Under the pieces are notes generated by a model. It did no database searches and was not told the origin of the DNA. It saw nothing but the letters and a program-made list of their open reading frames with translations. DNA of 64,000 nt, taken from the NCBI GenBank assembly GCA_045133095.1, contig JBGUTP010000004.1:67058-131057 (forward strand). Reading direction: 5' to 3'. The translations under genes and the position numbers were made by a program. This DNA is from Candidatus Enterousia sp. GTDB lineage: Bacteria; Pseudomonadota; Alphaproteobacteria; Rs-D84. The stretch's first letter is position 1; each line of letters opens with the position of its first letter. Below are positions 13,940-59,989 of the stretch, one piece after another.

Positions 13940-14941
13940 ATGTCTAAAGTAAGAGTAGCAATTAATGGTTTCGGCCGTATCGGACGCTTGGTTTTGCGTG
14001 CGGCATTGGAATCTAAACGTGACGACATCGAATTTGTTGCAGTTAATGATTTGGCACCAGCAGAACAAAATGCATATTTGTTAAAATACGATTCTGTACA
14101 CGGTAATTTACCAATGGATGTAAAACTGGATGGGGAATACATTATTGTGGGCGACCAAAAAATTAAGTGCATCGCAGAACGCGACCCGGCAAAATTGCCT
14201 TGGGGGGAATTGAATATTGATATCGTTATGGAATGTACCGGTATCTTTACCGCCGCAGATAAGGCGCGTCTTCACCTGGATGCGGGCGCAAAGCGCGTTC
14301 TGGTTTCGGCACCATCGGCGGGCGCAGATAAAACAATCGTATTTGGCGTAAACCAGGATACATTGACATCTGAAGATTTGATTGTTTCAAACGCATCTTG
14401 CACAACTAATTGCCTGGCACCGGTGGTAAAGGTCCTGAATGATAAATTTGGGGTCGTTTCTGGGTGGATGACAACCGTACACGCATACACCGGCGACCAA
14501 CAACTGCTGGACAAAAATCACAAGGATTTCCGTCGCGCACGCGCGGCTAACCTGTCTATGATTCCAACAAGCACAGGCGCAGCAAAGGCGATTGGGTTGG
14601 TGCTGCCGGAACTGGCGGGAAAGTTAGATGGCATGGCAATTCGCGTTCCAACACCTGATGTGTCCGTGGTGGAATTGGTTGCTAATTTGGAAAAGAACGC
14701 AACAGTCGAAGAAGTTAACGCCGCAATGCGCGCCGCAGAATCTAAGACTTTTGGATACAATGATTTACCATTGGTTTCAATTGACTTTACACACGATGCG
14801 CACAGTTCTGTGTTTGACGCAGGACAAACCAAGGTGTTGGGTGACAAACTGGTTCATGTGACGGCATGGTATGATAACGAATGGGGTTTCTCGAACCGCA
14901 TGGGGGATACAGCCGTTGCAATGGGAAAACTGATAAAATAA
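13940..14941 (+). CDS. gap: Type I glyceraldehyde-3-phosphate dehydrogenase
   Basis: [26 protein letters not shown]. Confidence 0.98.
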
Positions 14942-15043
14942 AAAAACAAGCCCGCCAATCGGCGGGTTTTATAATATTTTTACTTTTAATAAAAAAAGTT
15001 CTTGCATTTATTCCAAGTACAGTATATTATGTACAACGCTTTA

Positions 15044-15120
15044 GGGGTTGTAGCTCAGCTGGTTAGAGCGTCTGCCTGTCACGCAGAAGGTCGCGGGTTC
15101 GAGCCCCGTCAATCCCGCCA
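15044..15120 (+). tRNA. tRNA-Asp(GTC)
   Basis: Cloverleaf GGGGTTGTAGCTCAG...CTGTCAC...GGTTCGAG...CCA. Confidence 0.97.
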
Positions 15121-15217
15121 GTATTTACACCGTCATCATGACGGTGTTTTTTCTTGTTTACTGTTAAAAATAATACTTTATAATTACCATTATAGACTAA
15201 TCAAAAAGGAGAAACAC

Positions 15218-15655
15218 ATGAAATTCAAACTGTTAGCAATTGGTGCATGCACATTGGCATTGGCGGCGTGTGGCGACAATGGTCAAAACCCAAACGCACT
15301 TAAGGGAATAAGTTTTGTATCTGCCCAGCCAGGCGTTGATATCACACTGACATTCGACCCACAGGACATGCGTGTATATGGAAAAGTGGTCAATCAATAC
15401 AATGGTGGATATACCGCAGATGGCGACAATATTAAATTTGAAGGTTTTGCATCGACTATGATGATGGGCGCACCAGAAGCCATGGAAACCGAAGCAGAAT
15501 ATTTCCAGTTTATGCCAACCGTCGAAACATACGAACTTAGTGACGGGAAATTAACCCTGGTGGGCGAAAACGGCAAAGAAATTATCTTTACCCAGGTGGA
15601 AGTTACCCCGACAGAAACAGTGACTGCAGAAGAAGCGGAAGTTGTTACGGAATAA
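15218..15655 (+). CDS. META-domain (HslJ-like) lipoprotein
   Basis: Lipobox LAAC, GFASTMMM motif, AAGGAG RBS. Confidence 0.85.
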   Translation: MKFKLLAIGACTLALAACGDNGQNPNALKGISFVSAQPGVDITLTFDPQDMRVYGKVVNQYNGGYTADGDNIKFEGFASTMMMGAPEAMETEAEYFQFMPTVETYELSDGKLTLVGENGKEIIFTQVEVTPTETVTAEEAEVVTE

Positions 15656-15732
15656 ATTCGTTGTTATTTACTTGACAACTAATGTTAATCCAGTTATAAT
15701 TTGCCGGCGTTCACATTGAACACGGCAGTTTT

Positions 15733-15808
15733 GGCCCCATCGTCTAGAGGCCTAGGACACCGCCCTTTCAAGGCGAGAACACCGGTTCGAATCCGGTTGG
15801 GGCTGCCA
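15733..15808 (+). tRNA. tRNA-Glu(TTC)
   Basis: GGCCCCATCGTCTAGAGG...CTTTCAA...GGTTCGAATCC...CCA. Confidence 0.97.
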
Positions 15809-15958
15809 AAATAAACAAATCGGGTTTTATACCCGATTTTTCTTTGTTTTCCAATACTTTCAGCAGTTCGAAGGTTAGGTGTTGAAAATAGAGACCGTTT
15901 CACACATTTACGAACTTTTACAAAGAAAAAGGTTAGAAATCTAACCTTTTTCTTTGTT
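15803..15958 (+). repeat. Right arm, copy 1 (about 155 bp; homologous to 16733-16886)
   Basis: Shared AATACTTTCA, AGTTCG, CACATTTACGAACTTTTA and the AAGAAAAAGGTTAGA-NN-TCTAACCTTTTTCTT hairpin. Confidence 0.85.
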
Positions 15959-15971
15959 TTATCGTGTAATA

Positions 15972-16577
15972 TTAAAATCTGTACCCTGCGCCGATAATCA
16001 AATCAAAGCCAGACATACGCTCGCTTACATTATCAACACTAAGGCCGTTTATTTCTTTTATGTCCAGTTCAGTTGTTATTTTATAACTTAAATTCGCATT
16101 TAAATAGAAATTGTTAGTCATATATTGTCTGCAACCTAATCCAAAACTAAATACCGCACCAGATGTTTTAACTTCTCCATCCATACTTGCATATCCAGCA
16201 GCAAGAGAAACATAAGGTTTAAAATTAGAATTACGCATTAAATAAATATCAAATTCTGCATCAATTTCATTCAGTTTTGATGTAGTTGTGTCAGTACCAG
16301 AAACTTTTGTTTTTGTTTGGCTTAAAGATGGGTTAATAGAGATTGCAACAACATCATCAATTTCTATACCCAATACAAAATCGCCGACATTGTTATCATT
16401 AAAATCAAAACTATCTGACTTAACCACTGTTCCTGTATCATCTTTTAACTTTACATTGTATGAACTGGCTAAACTCAAATTATAACCAACAAATGGTTTA
16501 ATATGATAAGAATCAGATTCAGCAAAAGCACTTACTGGTAAAGCAATCAAAACAGGTAAAGCATATAATAATTTCAT
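15972..16577 (-). CDS. Outer membrane beta-barrel protein (OmpA-like TM/porin family); cassette 1
   Basis: Signal peptide, KPYVSLAAGY, C-terminal IGAGYRF; AT-rich. Confidence 0.85.
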   Translation of the reverse strand: MKLLYALPVLIALPVSAFAESDSYHIKPFVGYNLSLASSYNVKLKDDTGTVVKSDSFDFNDNNVGDFVLGIEIDDVVAISINPSLSQTKTKVSGTDTTTSKLNEIDAEFDIYLMRNSNFKPYVSLAAGYASMDGEVKTSGAVFSFGLGCRQYMTNNFYLNANLSYKITTELDIKEINGLSVDNVSERMSGFDLIIGAGYRF

Positions 16578-16636
16578 TGCATCTCCTTTTTTACACATTA
16601 TGACTATATTCCAATCTATTATTTTTTTCAATGATA

Positions 16637-16886
16637 TTATAAGGTTAAAAACATATTCAGAAACAATTTTATTTCTTTCCCAAACAACAACAAATCACGC
16701 ATATCATTAGCTCGTGAATTGCACAGATGGCCCTGCCAAAATAAATAAAACCGCATTTTTGCGGTTTTTTGATTGGATTTCTAATACTTTCACAAGTTCG
16801 TAAGTTAGATGTCAAAAACAACTACCATTTCCCACATTTACGAACTTTTAAAAAGAAAAAGGTTAGATTTCTAACCTTTTTCTTGA
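16637..16886 (+). repeat. Composite junction: left arm, core, right arm copy 2
   Basis: 16666-16741 aligns without gaps to 18412-18487 (about 62/76 identical by hand count); 16733-16886 aligns to 15803-15958. Confidence 0.85.
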
Positions 16887-16911
16887 TTCGAATTTATTGT
16901 GGGAGCTTGAA

Positions 16912-17457
16912 TTATTTTTCTAATATTTTTTCCAATATATATTCGTGATGCCATTCGCCGTCAATAAATGCAGTGTCATGCAAAATACCGACAATTTCAT
17001 AACCTTGCTTTAACAGATTGCCAAGCGAACGCGTATTTTTATGTCGGATACTAGATTCCAGTTTGTGTACATTATTTTCAATCGCCCACTTTTCTATTAT
17101 TTGCTTGAACTTAGTCCCCAAACCATTCGAAGTGTATTTTTCTAATATGGTTGTTCCTGTGGTGGCCACGCGTCCCGAATATGGATGCCCAACTTGCTTT
17201 TTATTTATGCTGGCGGTGCCAATCAAAGTGTTGCCATCCCATGCACCCAAGAACAAATTGTTTGGATTTTCATAAATCTGGATAGATTTTTCGCGGTCTT
17301 TTTTCGGTTGACCAGCATACTGACATGTCCATTTTGCCCCAGGACCACGAGTGAATTTTTCAAGGTACTTCATCATATCTTCATAATCCTTACCACGAAT
17401 ACGGCGAATAGTAACAACTTTACCGTTTTTTAATTTGAATTTGATGGCACGATTCAT
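16912..17457 (-). CDS. GNAT family N-acetyltransferase; cassette 2
   Basis: ILEKYTSNGLGT acetyl-CoA motif, NTRSLGNLLKQGY, RimJ/L-like C-terminus. Confidence 0.85.
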   Translation of the reverse strand: MNRAIKFKLKNGKVVTIRRIRGKDYEDMMKYLEKFTRGPGAKWTCQYAGQPKKDREKSIQIYENPNNLFLGAWDGNTLIGTASINKKQVGHPYSGRVATTGTTILEKYTSNGLGTKFKQIIEKWAIENNVHKLESSIRHKNTRSLGNLLKQGYEIVGILHDTAFIDGEWHHEYILEKILEK

Positions 17458-17491
17458 GATATTTCCTTTTTATTGGTCAAGAATAATTGTA

Positions 17492-17572
17492 TCATAGTTT
17501 ATTCAAAAACACCTTAACATTTTTCCCAAACTGCAGTAAATCGTACAGGCCATTAGTTCACCCCTGTAAATA
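17492..17572 (+). repeat. Degenerate left arm with internal deletion and worn core
   Basis: TTTTCCCAAACTGCAGTAAATC...CATTAGTTCA-CCCCTGTAAA matches the other left arms minus about 15 nt. Confidence 0.65.
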
Positions 17573-17626
17573 AAAACAGAAAAAGTATTGACAAATATAC
17601 ATATTTGTCTTATTTTTTGTAAAAAA

Positions 17627-18412
17627 ATGAAACTTGCAGAACCTAAAATTTTATATAAAGATATTGTCATCAATAACAACAATATTGATGACTTTTTGAA
17701 TACCCCACATGGCGGTGCATATCATTATGACACAAACACTATAATATTGTATAACTATATTATATCCCAAGATATATTAGATGCCAAAAAAGCCGCAGAG
17801 GCGAAATCTATCACACATACTGCGATTGAACATCGCCCCAGCACAATCGTGCATGAAAAGCGACACTGGCACAACAGAACAATCGTACCACGATTCCAGG
17901 ACTTTTGTTTGATGAATTATTATCAGGAAGTTTCGTTGCAGTGTCTTGACGAAATTTCTGCAATAACCGCCGATATTTTGTACACAACACCAAAGTATAA
18001 AAAACTTGGCATATGCCAGGCAACTGTACTTTGTTCGATGTTAGAAGCAACAGAAAGATTCAAGAATAGTTGTTTGGATGAATATCTAAATCGTTTTATC
18101 GACTGGATATCGGAAAGTTATCATTTGGATGTGGAATTATTAACTGTTGAAAAAGCCTACGTATTTTTGCAACAGCTGCAGGCTACATATAAAGATGCCC
18201 CACAAAAGCTGTTCGACAAACGTTTTCATGATGCTGTCAAAGGCTATTTCACATTTGACGACTATTGTATTTTGAACGATAAGATATCAGATGCTTCAAT
18301 GGATGCATGGGGCCTTATGTTACAAAATTTCGCACAAATAAGGCAAAAAGCCAACGCCAAGACACACAAAATGATAAACACAATAATAAAATCAAAAACC
18401 TTCCAAAAATGA
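17627..18412 (+). CDS. Hypothetical protein with HExxH motif (possible zinc metallopeptidase); cassette 3
   Basis: STIVHEKRH and a downstream Glu (LDEISA). Confidence 0.6.
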   Translation: MKLAEPKILYKDIVINNNNIDDFLNTPHGGAYHYDTNTIILYNYIISQDILDAKKAAEAKSITHTAIEHRPSTIVHEKRHWHNRTIVPRFQDFCLMNYYQEVSLQCLDEISAITADILYTTPKYKKLGICQATVLCSMLEATERFKNSCLDEYLNRFIDWISESYHLDVELLTVEKAYVFLQQLQATYKDAPQKLFDKRFHDAVKGYFTFDDYCILNDKISDASMDAWGLMLQNFAQIRQKANAKTHKMINTIIKSKTFQK

Positions 18413-18487
18413 TTTTATTTCTTTTCCAAACTGCAACAAATCATGAATAAACTCAGTTCGTGAATTGCACAGTATGTCCTGCCAAAA
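18392..18487 (+). repeat. Left arm and core at the distal end of the array
   Basis: TCGTGAATTGCACAG...CCTGCCAAAA followed by the hairpin AAAACACCC-GTTT-GGGTGTTTT. Confidence 0.85.
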
Positions 18488-18702
18488 ATCCAAAACACCC
18501 GTTTGGGTGTTTTTTTATTTTTGTTAAAGCAGACCCAACCGGATGCGCCATAGTGCCGACATTGGTGCGTATGCGCCATACAAGGAGTAAAAATAAAAAA
18601 AATTACAGTATTATCTTGTTTAATAGCACTTAGTGCGTGCGACAGAATAAACTTTTCCAAAAAAAACACCCGGCGCATGCCGGGGAGGGATTTAACGTAA
18701 GA

Positions 18703-19092
18703 CTACCATCTTTTAACGTCAGTCGAAACGTTATGCTTTTCAATAAATACAGTCAAACGTTCCAATACTTCACAGGCATCCTGTTCATGTTCCTGAAGTT
18801 TTTTATCCTGGTGAGTGTAAAGTTTAAGATTATCATAATCCCAATTCGTAGAGATTTCCAAGGCTTGACCATAAGACAATAAACCATAGCCCGGAATAAC
18901 AATCGCGTATTTAATATCATTGCCGTCTTCATCAACCTTTTGTAAGTGCGTCAGTGCCTCTATCTGAGTTATACACTGGTTTATATTATCCGTATCAGAC
19001 AACACCTTGGTGTCACCAACAATGTTATTGTCCGCCACATCTTCACAGGCACATAACGCCAACAACACCGGAAAAATACGCAGCAACCTCAT
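18703..19092 (-). CDS. Hypothetical lipoprotein
   Basis: Lipobox LALCAC, AAGGAG RBS. Confidence 0.75.
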   Translation of the reverse strand: MRLLRIFPVLLALCACEDVADNNIVGDTKVLSDTDNINQCITQIEALTHLQKVDEDGNDIKYAIVIPGYGLLSYGQALEISTNWDYDNLKLYTHQDKKLQEHEQDACEVLERLTVFIEKHNVSTDVKRW

Positions 19093-19260
19093 AATTACTC
19101 CTTTGTTTCATGCATTCAATTATACCATACTAACAAATATCTGCATTGATTTTTTTAGCGTTTTGTGTTATAGTACACAGTGAATCGATGACGACGTTTG
19201 GGTCGTCTTTTTTTATTTCACCCTGCCCCACGGCGGGGATTTTTTATTAAGGACAATTAT

Positions 19261-19797
19261 ATGATTACTGAATTACACGACAGACAAAATAACAGCATTG
19301 AAAAAACAATGAACGAAGAAGCAGGATATGTGGATAATCCACGCCTGATAGACCAACCAACTAATTTCGGAATAACACAACCGACACTGGATAAATACAA
19401 CCAAAAACACCCGACACTAAACTTTCCCAAGAAAGTAATTGATATAAAACGAGAACACGCAAAACAGATATATAAAGAAGACTATTATGACGGGCGCAAA
19501 ATCTGGGAAATTAAAAACCCCAGGATTGCACACGCCGTGTTTGATATGGGCGTAATGAGCAATTTTAACAATGTCGTTAAAACCGTTCAAAAAACACTGA
19601 ACAATTTTCAGCGTGCGAATTTAATAGTCGATGGCAAAATGGGCAACAAAACAATCGGCGCACTGAACAGCGTACCAGATGACAAAATCAACGAATTTAT
19701 GAACCTGTTGAAACGCAACAGGATTAAATATTTGCGCAGTTTATCAGGTTGGGACAAGTTCGGTCGCGGTTGGGTCAGTCGCACAAACAGATATTAA
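19261..19797 (+). CDS. Glycoside hydrolase family 108 lysozyme with peptidoglycan-binding C-terminus
   Basis: EAGYVDNP...TNFGIT, VFDMGV, VDGKMGNKT, FGRGWVSR. Confidence 0.85.
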   Translation: MITELHDRQNNSIEKTMNEEAGYVDNPRLIDQPTNFGITQPTLDKYNQKHPTLNFPKKVIDIKREHAKQIYKEDYYDGRKIWEIKNPRIAHAVFDMGVMSNFNNVVKTVQKTLNNFQRANLIVDGKMGNKTIGALNSVPDDKINEFMNLLKRNRIKYLRSLSGWDKFGRGWVSRTNRY

Positions 19798-19877
19798 AAA
19801 CATGGACAAAAACTTGACAAAACGCCGTATCTGAACTATGTTAATCGCAGCAATACGTCATAACAAGGATTGTAGAT

Positions 19878-20174
19878 ATGGCAACTTTTAAACAAATTAA
19901 ACCACACGAACATCAGCAGATGATGGAAACGATTAACAAAATGAAAGACCGTGCAACAAGTTCATTGGTTGCAGGATGCTCTTGCGTTTCAATGGGTGCG
20001 GTCGCTGTTGTCATAGCAACAATCAACGCATGTCGCGACGAAGCCGGTCTGGCGGCAATTTGTGCATTATCAGGGGTCTTTTCAGCATTTATCGGGGCAT
20101 GGAATATAAAGAATTCATTTGTCTGTAACAAGGAACTGAATTCGATAGAAAAAATGCTGAACAAGCAAAGATAA
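19878..20174 (+). CDS. Two-TM hypothetical protein
   Basis: Own promoter, AAGGA RBS, two hydrophobic helices; ends NKQR. Confidence 0.7.
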   Translation: MATFKQIKPHEHQQMMETINKMKDRATSSLVAGCSCVSMGAVAVVIATINACRDEAGLAAICALSGVFSAFIGAWNIKNSFVCNKELNSIEKMLNKQR

Positions 20175-20185
20175 AAAAACCGCCC

Positions 20186-21430
20186 TTAACTGTGGCGGTT
20201 TTTACTGTTCTGGCGGGGAATAAACAATGTACGACACACCCAACCCCACAGCACCAGCACACACCCTATCAATATCAAATAATAACGCAGCCAATCATAG
20301 CCGCCATAAACACCAACGTATATCAGACCAACAAAGCCAACCCACCGACCCAAAAACAGTGCAAAATCACGCAAGACAAAATATTCTATACGCGTGTCGC
20401 GCGTCACACAACGCGAACGGGAAAGTTTGTACATGCTGATGTTGCTTGATTGTTCAATAAAAATTATGGCGGTCGCATAAACCAAATTATAAATCAAGAA
20501 TGTCACAGGTGTCGCACGCCATACAAAAAACAACATCGATAACAAGACCAGAAAAACACAAATCTGAAGCAAGATGCGAATGGTCTTGTCGCGACTGATA
20601 TAGCGAAACACCCAACACGTCAACACCGAGCATATGGCAAACACCGTCGTCAATATACCAAGATTCAAATCAGAATGAAAAATGTAAACCGTGTACATCG
20701 TTATAACCGTCCCCAACAACCCTAACCCAAAACCACGCAGAACTTCTGATAAAAACAATTTACGAACAACCGGAAAACGACGCATACAACGATAAAAGCC
20801 AATAAAATCTGTACCACGGGAATCACGATGGCGACTGGGGGTCAACATAAAGGACAGTCCAAATTCCACGCACGACAACAATAACAGCGCAAAGGCAACA
20901 TCCGTATAAGAACCAGTGTCAATAAAACACCCCAAAATCACAGGCGCCAGAATTTTAGCCAAATAACCAATCGCATTATTTGTTCCAACAAAATGCCCCA
21001 TAGATTTACCTGACACCTTGTCCGCAGTTATAACATGACGTGGCAGATAGTACATAGCCGCACTTAGCCCATAAAGCAGCCCCAGCGGGACGACATAATT
21101 GACCGCATCCGCACCCAGAAAAATAATCGCCGACAAAACCGCCATTTTAGGCAACACACTTAACCCAAAGACAGTCGCCTTGTTATGACGCTTTACCCAA
21201 CCCGCAAACAAAAAGAAACCCGCACACGTCGCGACATATTCAAATAATTTATAGGTAGATATTGATACTATCTCGTTCACAGAAATGTGCATGACAAATG
21301 AAATAAAGAACGCACCCATAAATAAATCAGAAACCGTGCGCAAGGCACCGAATATTATCAACAACCATAAATCACGTGACAACTTATTCGACGACATGGA
21401 TAAAAATTTCTCTCTGCTGTATTTGAACAT
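20186..21430 (-). CDS. MFS transporter
   Basis: 414 aa with about 12 hydrophobic segments. Confidence 0.85.
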   Translation of the reverse strand: MFKYSREKFLSMSSNKLSRDLWLLIIFGALRTVSDLFMGAFFISFVMHISVNEIVSISTYKLFEYVATCAGFFLFAGWVKRHNKATVFGLSVLPKMAVLSAIIFLGADAVNYVVPLGLLYGLSAAMYYLPRHVITADKVSGKSMGHFVGTNNAIGYLAKILAPVILGCFIDTGSYTDVAFALLLLSCVEFGLSFMLTPSRHRDSRGTDFIGFYRCMRRFPVVRKLFLSEVLRGFGLGLLGTVITMYTVYIFHSDLNLGILTTVFAICSVLTCWVFRYISRDKTIRILLQICVFLVLLSMLFFVWRATPVTFLIYNLVYATAIIFIEQSSNISMYKLSRSRCVTRDTRIEYFVLRDFALFLGRWVGFVGLIYVGVYGGYDWLRYYLILIGCVLVLWGWVCRTLFIPRQNSKNRHS

Positions 21431-21504
21431 GGGGATTATATCATATTTTATCCAGCAAATAAATCAGTTTGACATCAGTGGACACCACAGTCTATAATAT
21501 CGGC

Positions 21505-21624
21505 ATGAAAAAAGCATTTTTATTCTTTCTGGTGTTGTCGGTCTTGGCAATTGGGGGATGCGGGGTAAAATCTGACCTGGCGCACCCTAACCCGGATTAT
21601 CCACGTGACTATCCAGTATATTAA
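21505..21624 (+). CDS. Small lipoprotein (LptM/YifL-like), absent from the ORF track
   Basis: MKKAFLFFLVLSVLAIGGCGVKSDLAHPNPDYPRDYPVY; CGxKxxL.P motif; followed by a terminator. Confidence 0.65.
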   Translation: MKKAFLFFLVLSVLAIGGCGVKSDLAHPNPDYPRDYPVY

Positions 21625-21723
21625 GAAAAGCCCATTGGGCTTTTTTTCAACGCAGTATCAAAACAAAGAACGCCCCAATCGGGGCGCACTTTGCACATAA
21701 CCAAAAAAACTAAACATATACGC

Positions 21724-21903
21724 TTAGTGTGAAACCTTAGCCTCTGTCATAACAACATGCTTGCGCAGTTTTTTGTCATACTTGCGGAATTTCATTTTGC
21801 CCTGAGTATTTTCGGACTTGGTGTTTTTAGTTGTGATATAGAAGACGCCAGTTTCGTTATTTCTTAACTGTACAACTTCTTTGCTACCTTTTTTAGATGC
21901 CAT
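21724..21903 (-). CDS. rpmG: 50S ribosomal protein L33 (cysteine-free form), absent from the ORF track
   Basis: Hand translation MASKKGSKEVVQLRNNETGVFYITTKN...KMKFRKYDKKLRKHVVMTEAKVSH. Confidence 0.92.
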   Translation of the reverse strand: MASKKGSKEVVQLRNNETGVFYITTKNTKSENTQGKMKFRKYDKKLRKHVVMTEAKVSH

Positions 21904-22010
21904 TTTATTTCGCCTTTATATTATTCTGCGTCGGATTGTATGTTAAATTTTACTGGAAATCAAGTTTTTTTTATCATAAAATGGAAAAACTGTTCAAACA
22001 GCCCTTGCAA

Positions 22011-22095
<85 letters not shown>

Positions 22096-22112
22096 TTTTC
22101 CATAGTTTTTGC

Positions 22113-22271
22113 GCGGATAACAATTGAGCCATAGGCGACTACGCAGCAACGCGAAGTGGAACGGAACGCGAAAGCGTGACGGTCAAATTGGTAGACGCGC
22201 TGGATTTAGGTTCCATGCGCAACCCATAGGAGTTCGAGTCTCCTTACCCGCACCATTTTCCATAGTTTTTG
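22113..22271 (+). pseudogene. Tandem degenerate tRNA-Leu copy with a hairpin-rich insertion in the 5' D-arm region
   Basis: 22185-22271 nearly identical to 22023-22111; 5' GCGGATA is separated from it by about 65 nt. Confidence 0.8.
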
Positions 22272-22415
22272 TATAAAATACACTTTTTTATGTGGTTTTG
22301 CATAATTTTTTCGACAAAACACTTGACTTTTGCATAAAAAAACATAAAATTTGCATAAACTTTTCGCCAAATGGCGTAAATAATAATAAACAAATTAAGA
22401 AACAAGAGAAAGAAA

Positions 22416-22715
22416 ATGAGCGATTTTGCAATCTTTCAAACCGGCGGCAAACAATATCGCGTTGCACAAGGCGATATTATCAAGGTTGAAAAACTGAACG
22501 CCGAAGGGAAAGTAGAATTTGACCAGGTTTTAATGGTCGGCGATAAAATCGGTACACCATTCGTAGAAGGTGCAAAGGTTGTCGCAGAAGTAATTGAACA
22601 GAAACGCGCTGACAAGATTTTGGTGTTCAAGAAAAAACGTCGCCAGAATTATCGCCGCACAGCCGGTCATCGTCAGTATATCACTGTTCTGAAAGTAACA
22701 GATATTAAAGCCTAA
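22416..22715 (+). CDS. rplU: 50S ribosomal protein L21
   Basis: [26 protein letters not shown]. Confidence 0.97.
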
Positions 22716-59913: not shown

Positions 59914-59989
59914 GCCGGTTTAGCTCAGCTGGTAGAGCGGCTGATTTGTAATCAGTAGGTCGTTGGTTCAAGTCCGACAACCGGCACCA
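59914..59989 (+). tRNA. tRNA-Thr(TGT)
   Basis: GCCGGTTTAGCTCAG...TTTGTAA...GGTTCAAGTCC...CCA. Confidence 0.97.

Follow-up and report, generated by a model that had tools for sequence, protein, structure and literature searches.

What is the short, start-less reading frame that recurs in the left arms of a row of cassettes behind a tRNA-Glu gene, and why does it stay open? The question is raised by a 64,000-nucleotide stretch of Candidatus Enterousia sp. (assembly GCA_045133095.1, 1.08 Mb in 33 contigs; contig C4, 67058-131057), hereafter the window, in which three units lie behind tRNA-Glu(ttc), each terminating in or beside a 9-base core, CTGCCAAAA (Table 1). Units 1 and 2 each consist of a right arm (R arm), cargo and a left arm (L arm), unit 3 of cargo and an L arm, and within the assembly the arms are confined to the tRNA-Glu locus. 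According to a sequence-only reading of the locus, the L arms would go back to the 3' end of a recombinase gene, one that extends across its own attachment site, so that the C-terminus of the enzyme would switch between integrated and excised states. The underlying observation was confirmed, and the evidence supports this interpretation in its main point: the arms are orphaned tails of a serine integrase. With a probability of about 0.87, the L arms are the attP-side halves of the att site of a family of large serine recombinases (LSRs) that insert at the CCA end of tRNA-Glu and whose gene crosses the point of crossover.

On the minus strand, 16753-16637 translates to RFYLFWQGHLCNSRANDMRDLLLFGKEIKLFLNMFLTL and 18499-18392 to GVLDFWQDILCNSRTEFIHDLLQFGKEIKSFLEGF, each closed by a stop, and 17569-17492 gives LQG, a stop, TNGLYDLLQFGKNVKVFLNKL and again a stop; the latter arm is truncated and coreless, with the first stop just upstream of the peptide. 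These translations are identical to those reported before, and the synonymous differences between the arms (TTG/TTA/CTG, GGG/GGA, AAA/AAG) are present in the sequence. Nor does any open reading frame (ORF) feed into the arm frame, as had been stated: 32 copies were obtained by motif search, and in these the Asp codon is preceded by 5-68 open codons, with dissimilar upstream sequences.

The open-frame pattern of the arms exceeds chance. In two sets, one of up to 47 copies and one of 123 distinct copies that stem from an nhmmer profile search with 187 hits, of which 185 could be extracted, the segment D-L-L-x-F-G-K-E-I-K-x-F-L displays a low-low-high column entropy per codon. The codon-position bias, on which the sequence-only reading depended, is thus retained in the alignment of 123 copies. 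Within the distal 18 codons, a stop is found in 1 of the 123 arms in frame vs. 93 and 121 in the other two frames; 43 of the 123 copies contain gaps. An estimate of the dN/dS type over many arms, i.e., the pooled ratio of the proportions of nonsynonymous and synonymous differences (pN/pS), yielded 0.48 in frame vs. 0.76 and 1.18 in the shifted frames. Changes between nearest neighbours among the 101 gap-free arms numbered 180, 143 and 291 at codon positions 1, 2 and 3, respectively. Their synonymous share was 0.332, whereas 0.256 +/- 0.017 was obtained under neutrality (2000 simulations, maximum 0.313), and one of these arms carried a stop vs. 22.5 +/- 4.0 expected neutrally (minimum 10 in 2000 runs). 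Close to the core, the codons CTG TGC AAT TCA CGA (16726-16712; L-C-N-S-R) are conserved at all three positions, which implies that a DNA-level constraint operates there as well.

The arm peptide proved to be a working handle for the parent enzyme. A profile of the longer arm open frames (A2), searched against longer proteins, retrieved six hits, including P0005 (E 1.2e-14). The first 201 residues of this 234-aa protein correspond to the C-terminal part of an LSR; the 33 residues that remain, which follow WQ in the same frame, constitute the arm peptide. The protein ends in ...SWQ followed by GHLCNSRADFIHELLQFGKEVKMFLNTYLQ and a stop, or, in a longer C-terminal reading, in ...NRFLKILHSNCVYDGKKLQISVKKPFDLFISKVLNQSWQGHLCNSRADFIHELLQFGKEVKMFLNTYLQ and a stop. 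Of the other hits, three (P0003, P0004 and P0008) seem to arise from translation running on through arm or tRNA junctions, P0007 is a deaminase whose frame continues into an arm, and P0006 has the arm peptide in the middle of a frame the rest of which has no explanation. A Pfam scan of P0005 itself returned no family. It is taken as an LSR because its residues 1-211 match a 549-aa open frame in genome G267 (60% identity) and a 547-aa one in G183 (55%), both belonging to full LSRs, and because metagenome contig L162 encodes an LSR with 98% identity to residues 1-206 of P0005. Residues 39-206 are 94% identical to a sequence on metagenome contig L163. No relatives of P0005 were present in viral_contigs, and a scan of genome_contigs with a single protein matched G183's own contig only.

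The LSRs resembling P0005 (about 544-547 aa) overlap tRNA-Glu(ttc) on the opposite strand in G183, G267, L162 and L163. Thus, recombinase C-termini were indeed found next to tRNA-Glu. Those of G183 and G267 are intact, with 546 and 544 aa, respectively, and an overlap of ~19 codons; L162 contains a full-length gene and L163 the 3' part only, cut at the start of the locus. In the G183 protein, the domains Resolvase (PF00239, 6.8e-17) and Recombinase (PF07508, 3.2e-13) were detected, together with Zn_ribbon_recom (PF13408, 8e-05) at 23.4 bits, just below the 25.3-bit cut-off, and the database relatives P0009-P0016 have the same three precomputed LSR domains. The full-length proteins of G183, G267 and L162 end in ...WQPHSDLNRDSRLERAVS and a stop, i.e., in the antisense of tRNA-Glu, the part directly behind WQ being PHSDLNRDSRLERAVS. 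WQ is encoded by TGG CAG, the antisense of CTGCCA, within which TGG (Trp) is complementary to the CCA of the tRNA; core 1 of the window includes this CCA, and the antisense TGG corresponds to the Trp codon that is invariant in the LSR alignment. The frame that had been read through the tRNA of the window (FWQPQPDSNRCSRLERAVS and a stop) is the frame of the last LSR codons in these relatives, in which the antisense of tRNA-Glu forms the tail in the integrated state. Since P0005 and the L162 protein match at 98% identity, one enzyme is seen here with two tails that diverge exactly behind WQ, i.e., tRNA antisense in G183, G267 and L162 and arm in P0005. Both the alternative C-termini and the descent of the arms from the end of a recombinase gene across its own att site are supported by the P0005 fusion and the tRNA-overlapping LSRs. 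Tail alignments reveal homology between the arm peptide and the C-terminal end of LSRs; of such a gene, the window contains the last ~31 codons and no catalytic part.

The geometry of the site can be compared with that of known serine integrases. The core-proximal part of the arm resembles the 3' end of the tRNA (TTCGTGAATTGCACAGATGGCC-CTGCCA vs. TTCGAATCCGGTTGGGG-CTGCCA), and in these putative left half-sites TTCG is separated from CTGCCA by 17 nt (tRNA) and 22 nt (arm). In attP half-sites of large serine integrases, the outer motif is located 4-5 bp further from the centre than in attB, according to the accessible part of a recent preprint (bioRxiv 10.1101/2025.01.03.631226). If TTCG is assumed to be the recognised motif, the spacing would fit with the arm as the P half and the tRNA as the B half.

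Natural variation also maps to the cores. The window stretch is present in animal-gut metagenome runs of 16 studies. In a 35.8-kb contig of run X6, 171 other letters replace cassette 1 between 15812 and 16733. In run X3, one contig joins 15802 to 16733 (side of 21 letters) and another 15811 to 18502 with 13 letters in between (side of 28), the latter constituting an almost empty site, and contigs of run X7 depart from the window sequence at 15812 and 16733. Parts of the window uncovered in runs X2, X3, X6 and X7 were excluded from the evidence. Thus, as the contigs of X6, X3 and X7 demonstrate, cassette content varies between close strains exactly at the cores.

We propose that the LSR gene would sit at the other edge of its element, pointing at the crossover and without a stop before it, its invariant Trp codon TGG being complementary to the CCA of the tRNA. 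With the gene beside the tRNA, the last ~17 codons would be provided by the antisense of tRNA-Glu, with the ending ...WQPHSDLNRDSRLERAVS given above. In the circular form, or when the gene lies to the right of another cassette, the tail would be read from the L arm instead (...WQGHLCNSRxDFIxDLLxFGKEIKxFLxxx and a stop). The three cassettes of the window would then be recombinase-less derivatives, with R arms as leftovers of the last ~50 codons and L arms as orphaned tails. The core-proximal 30 nt of the arm may function as a P-type half-site, in which the separation of TTCG from the core exceeds that in the tRNA by 5 nt, and the enzyme made from the circular form presumably needs the arm tail. 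The arms might stay open since they would be read by every LSR gene inserting, or forming a circle, next to them.

Several observations weigh against this explanation. A full-length LSR of the tRNA-Glu type with an arm tail was not found; the sole arm-tailed copy of this type is the partial P0005, whose sequence starts with a Met internal to the protein and which is perhaps a remnant too, and all 8 full-length database relatives found among the 15 candidates scored have the tRNA tail, with matches stopping at about residue 206. The window's genome lacks a cognate LSR: it gave two matches to P0005, the best with E 2.8e-9, in the arm-only range, and its own 523-aa LSR has no significant BLASTP match to P0005 and an unrelated tail region. 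The cognate type occurs in 2 of the 257 genomes of the genus. For the intact LSRs of L135 and L162, the 6-13 kb upstream yielded no L arm, and nhmmer and a TGGCA[GA] scan of L135, L162 and L136 likewise revealed no far-end L arm of the intact LSR elements over 6-13 kb, so a complete element with both ends has not been seen. Furthermore, the first ~25 nt to the right of the core differ among cassettes, which is odd for an LSR half-site, and the X3 joints are supported by short sides only (21 and 28 letters). Finally, selection appears weak in close arm pairs (84-nt distance <=0.12; 322 pairs), where pN/pS is 0.65 vs. 0.83 and 1.02 in the control frames.

The R arms, and the short 3' remnants of LSR genes beside some arms (G215, G135 and G115), add to the case for an LSR origin of the cassettes. 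In the orientation of the window, the 3' end of an intact LSR gene consists of the core, a terminator-like hairpin, ~25 nt and a 12-bp inverted repeat. The hairpin is formed by the codons K-K-P-F-D-L-F-I-S, and the repeat, which encodes S-S-x-V...L-L-x-N, reads AGTTCCCAAGTA...TACTTGGGAACT in G183, AGTTCAAAAGTA...TACTTTTGAACT in G267 and AGTTCGAAAGTA...TACTTTCGAACT in LSRs of the Gln and Pro types. The R arms, of which the two in the window are 78% identical, conform to this arrangement, spacing included, and their repeat reads AGTTCGTAAGT...A(T/C)TTACGAACT. Its middle triplets co-vary: among 196 instances, palindromic sites being counted on both strands, 106 have GTA/TAC, 36 have GAA/TTC and 26 are mixed. 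The TAA of the motif is a stop in the LSR frame, and most R arms share a derived stop inside AGTTCGTAA (106 + 13 of the 196 instances). An R-arm profile matches ~80-140 nt from the tRNA end in most of 33 LSR loci; as each match is individually weak (E 4e-4 to >1), it is their consistent position that serves as the evidence. To judge from their sequence, the R arms seem to represent what remains, in decayed form, of the final ~50 codons of the LSR gene, possibly kept for a role at the DNA or RNA level.

That the R arm might be native sequence downstream of tRNA-Glu was considered and dropped, because seven of nine same-genus genomes without arm DNA are also devoid of R arms; the remaining two, G022 and G029, have R-arm matches. 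An 11-12-bp inverted repeat on GTTCG(A/T)AA is present in the R arms (16795-16846 and 15865-15918) as well as in the coding 3' ends of the LSR clade (L105-L134); its middle bases change in pairs, and the motif resembles the tRNA T-loop. A perfect palindrome, AAGAAAAAGGTTAGA..TCTAACCTTTTTCTT, terminates both R arms (15923-15955 and 16852-16884) and recurs elsewhere in the source genome (G000:C4:8727-8755) and in related genomes.

The layout of the tail is a trait of the wider LSR family throughout the genus. Among 20 LSR frames recovered from 32 loci (the filter missed the rest), 16 end inside an annotated tRNA gene, i.e., Gln(ctg), Gln(ttg), Pro(tgg/ggg) or Glu(ctc). All tRNA-ending frames break at an invariant W, and an alignment of 11 LSR sequences likewise shows an invariant Trp with divergence behind it. 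The intact 543-aa LSR of G188 (G188:C17:43-1674), which is 28% identical to that of G183, ends in this W plus a 31-residue non-tRNA tail, LGCISFSRTRDVLDLLSLGSNIQKILSRIQA, that can be aligned without gaps to the P0005 tail, QGHLCNSRADFIHELLQFGKEVKMFLNTYLQ. Tails of the G188 type are found orphaned in 58 of the 257 genomes of the genus, in open frames of <=139 aa among the matches listed, G188's own excepted. The G188 tail and its orphaned copies mark the arm tail as an old and conserved terminus in this LSR clade rather than an accident of one element. In an AlphaFold2 model of the G188 LSR (11-row alignment; mean predicted local distance difference test score (pLDDT) 75; predicted template modelling score 0.35), the tail (508-543) forms two short helices at pLDDT 31-40 and does not dock; therefore, the model is uninformative on tail function. 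The sequence-only reading had described an enzyme of this kind as seen for some tRNA-targeting LSRs; it is seen in the related genomes analysed here, but a published source could not be traced.

The G188-type tails (...SFSRTRDVLDLLSLGSNIQKIL..., L142:46-165 in G188) thus form a second family of orphaned tails, belonging to a paralogous LSR, and the window's genome contains none of these. The source genome's own 523-aa LSR (L055:412-1983, minus strand) ends in ...MVPVVGLEPTTY and a stop, encoded by the antisense of an incomplete copy (47-49 nt) of the 3' part of tRNA-Thr(tgt) (L055:400-449). This copy is located on C4, ~2.7 kb past the right end of the window, and the full tRNA-Thr(tgt) is at 59914-59989, ~6.8 kb upstream of it, with a tyrosine integrase in between.

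Arms are widespread in the genus but rare beyond it. Of 36 other sampled genomes of the genus, 27 had arm DNA. With a profile built from 31 arm peptides (A1), 419 matches were obtained in 161 of the 328 genomes of the order, including 158 of the 256 other genomes of the genus and one match each in two further genera of the same family; there were zero matches in the other five families (29 genomes). Among 150 matches listed, the largest open frame holding an arm measured 123 aa. The stacks are regular, with the order tRNA-Glu, R arm, cargo and L arm, and comprise up to eight or nine units. Their cargo elsewhere includes GNAT proteins, HAD and histidine phosphatases, MFS proteins, ABC-F-like ATPases, lysozymes, deaminases and many ORFs without a family.

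Some peculiarities of these stacks may be mentioned. Recurrent cargo ORFs of 460-472 aa (L056:4728-6110, L070:31-1449, L072:8250-9668 and L073:2779-4161) are ABC-F-like ATPases according to Pfam, with two ABC_tran domains and ABC_tran_Xtn in the four ORFs scanned; the 472-aa ORF at L137:2152-3570 is like them by size alone. At the far end of two arrays, a small resolvase of 198 aa (Resolvase plus HTH_7; L057:5032-6308 and L072:5433-6029) is found beside a core-less arm and a gene for a YadA-anchor protein, accompanied in L057 by a deaminase gene. Other classes of left arm precede the same core and R arm in the alignment (e.g., L083, L069, L074, L090 and L061); one of these ends in ...ATTATTG.GTATCGAGG.GCGATGTTGGGGCTGCCAAAA and another in the tRNA-fragment-like ...AATCCGAGTGGGGCTGCCAAAA.

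How the frame persists in the cassettes themselves can be explained in different ways. Tentatively, recombinase-less cassettes might be kept mobile by supplying the last ~31 residues of the enzyme that moves them. A stop-less LSR gene that inserts on the right-hand side of a cassette, or forms a circle with it, would borrow its end from the L arm, and only cassettes with a working tail would be carried on, so that hundreds of arms would retain an open, start-less frame; the two alternative tails, helical (arm) and tRNA-antisense, could then act as a switch of the activity or direction of the recombinase. Another possibility, on which we would likewise not rely, is that the arms are pure relics cut from working LSR genes, their codon pattern reflecting divergence of the parent genes with no selection on the frame in the cassettes. 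The short LSR 3' remnants (~residues 480-532) that directly adjoin some arms on the right (G215, G135 and G115) would agree with such an origin, as would the weaker constraint in closely related pairs, the truncation of L arm 2 and the gaps in about a third of the arm copies. However, the recent changes between nearest neighbours avoid stops, and a cognate LSR in 2 of 257 genomes contrasts with arms in 158 of 256. Moreover, the shared derived stop in AGTTCGTAA of the R arms, taken together with the avoidance of stops in the L arms, indicates that the cassettes spread as LSR-less units with arms kept open.

It is improbable that the arm encodes a small protein of its own or a leader peptide, e.g., an upstream ORF coupled to minus-strand cargo. 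Whereas the peptide ends 5-35 nt before a same-strand cargo ORF in cassettes 1 and 2, and the TGA stop of one arm class lies, in our reading, within a promoter-like TGnTATAAT motif, cargo 3 is on the other strand and overlaps the arm. Furthermore, a start codon or ribosome-binding site is not conserved, ATG occurring at the I/M codon in part of the copies only, and the peptide is homologous to the ends of LSR proteins. We consider it just as hard to believe that the arm is a DNA or RNA element only, i.e., a binding site for a recombinase or an accessory protein or a structured RNA, with the open frame as a by-product. The conservation of the core-proximal 15 nt at all three codon positions and the fact that a GTTCG motif is common to the T-loop of the tRNA, the arm and the repeat of the R arm would be in line with this, but a three-base periodicity with stop avoidance over the distal 18 codons is not expected of a binding site, and an Rfam scan of 14800-22600 found three tRNAs only, six further matches all scoring below the gathering thresholds.

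An origin of the L arms from an LSR gene that crosses its own att site makes this case a serine-recombinase variant of a known principle. On this principle, attP lies inside the repressor gene in some mycobacteriophages, and the int genes of archaeal SSV1-type elements are split by integration; the Int protein of myxophage Mx8 is a tyrosine recombinase. The integrases of LI/A118, Bxb1, phiC31 and SPbeta share with the enzyme discussed here the set of Resolvase, Recombinase and zinc-ribbon domains; to our knowledge, however, the genes of these phage-type LSRs do not run across attP, whereas the gene here crosses it at the tRNA's CCA, and the right half-site is poorly conserved in the cassettes. 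The distances of 22 and 17 nt may be set beside the 4-5-bp shift between attP and attB of phage-type LSRs, as given in the accessible part of the preprint (bioRxiv 10.1101/2025.01.03.631226). The closest precedent is Mx8, where the crossover also takes place within the sequence coding for the integrase and two alternative C-termini result: attP is within int, and integration creates a new 3' end and a different C-terminus (IntP/IntX), as summarised in the accessible sections of a review (PMC6070905). The enzyme here differs in being an LSR, as judged from the G183 domains, and stacks of integrase-less cassettes with orphaned tails are not described for Mx8 in those sections (PMC6070905).

Prochlorococcus tycheposons also are elements that stack at tRNA sites, with newer ones pushing older ones inward, degenerate remnants and cargo, and some carry an LSR and replication genes; according to the accessible part of the report, 910 of 937 use tyrosine recombinases and their joints are partial tRNAs (bioRxiv 10.1101/2020.12.28.424599). 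The tRNA target, stacking and remnants are common to both systems as far as that part of the report goes; the intact LSR elements here carry a helicase gene, and their Rep-like match is weak (23.9 bits vs. a cut-off of 27.8). In contrast, the joints here are halves of the recombinase gene's own end and not partial tRNAs; most cassettes consist of one gene, and they reside in a gut alphaproteobacterium whose genome measures ~1 Mb. Like integrons, the arrays contain tandem, mostly single-gene cassettes with a conserved junction module and a content that varies between strains. However, an IntI-type tyrosine integrase and an attC-like site are absent, the junctions consisting of L arm, core and R arm; a Pfam scan of 14 + 79 ORFs around arrays revealed no Phage_integrase domain, and the eight Phage_integrase hits of the source genome are all outside the array. 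A full-text search of the literature, as far as the texts were accessible, returned nothing pertinent on an LSR gene spanning attP at a tRNA, which is no proof that such a case is unpublished.

The twist in the present case is that open, codon-constrained orphaned tails persist in hundreds of recombinase-less cassettes. Their origin from an LSR accounts for a conserved start-less frame that would otherwise go unannotated or be called a spurious small ORF, and that marks the joints of cassette stacks behind tRNA-Glu throughout much of this gut genus. It extends the principle known from Mx8, i.e., a tail rewritten by integration, to LSRs at tRNA genes and suggests a simple physical means by which LSRs, which are enzymes in wide use, could sense whether their element is inserted or free. 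In addition, the arm peptide is a practical handle for finding such arrays and recombinases. Should the arms indeed be selected for completing a borrowed recombinase, they would represent a new dependence between autonomous and non-autonomous mobile elements.

Table 1. Features of the tRNA-Glu cassette locus (positions in the window)
Feature	Position	Strand	Basis and remarks
tRNA-Glu(ttc)	15733..15808	+	ARAGORN, Rfam tRNA; putative attB-type left half-site
Core 1, CTGCCAAAA	15803..15811	.	tRNA-Glu end; common to the other two junctions
R arm 1	15812..15957	+	Terminator hairpin, inverted repeat, palindromic terminator; repeat, alignment, LSR 3'-end comparison
Cargo 1, outer-membrane beta-barrel protein	15972..16631	-	ORF; Pfam OMP_b-brl
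L arm 1, probable orphaned attP-side tail, FWQGHLCNSRANDMRDLLLFGKEIKLFLNMFLTL and stop	16637..16741	-	Coding pattern; homology to P0005 tail
Core 2, CTGCCAAAA	16733..16741		Within L arm 1
R arm 2	16742..16884	+	Hairpin 16752-16772, inverted repeat, palindrome 16852-16884
R arm 2 inverted repeat, AGTTCGTAAGT / ATTTACGAACT	16795-16805 / 16836-16846		
Cargo 2, GNAT acetyltransferase	16912..17457	-	ORF; Pfam
L arm 2, truncated, ...TNGLYDLLQFGKNVKVFLNKL and stop	17492..17557	-	Without core and LCNSR part
Cargo 3, 274-aa ORF on opposite strand	17588..18412	+	No Pfam match; 3' end overlaps L arm 3
L arm 3, FWQDILCNSRTEFIHDLLQFGKEIKSFLEGF and stop	18392..18487	-	Arm alignment
Core 3, CTGCCAAAA	18479..18487		Within L arm 3
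Inverted fragment like tRNA-Glu 3' end, beyond last core	18520..18547	-	79% complementary to 15788-15815

The true ATG start of cargo 1 is probably further inside the ORF, and this gene may have its own promoter, as a TTGAAA-17-TATAGT sequence resembles one. Inverted tRNA-Glu fragments comparable to the one beyond the last core trail the arrays of other genomes. Further to the right, tRNA-Leu(tag) at 22011-22095 is followed ~160 nt later by a near-complete second copy, which is not called by ARAGORN and consists of two parts, 22185-22215 and 22219-22271, both 100% identical to the first copy.

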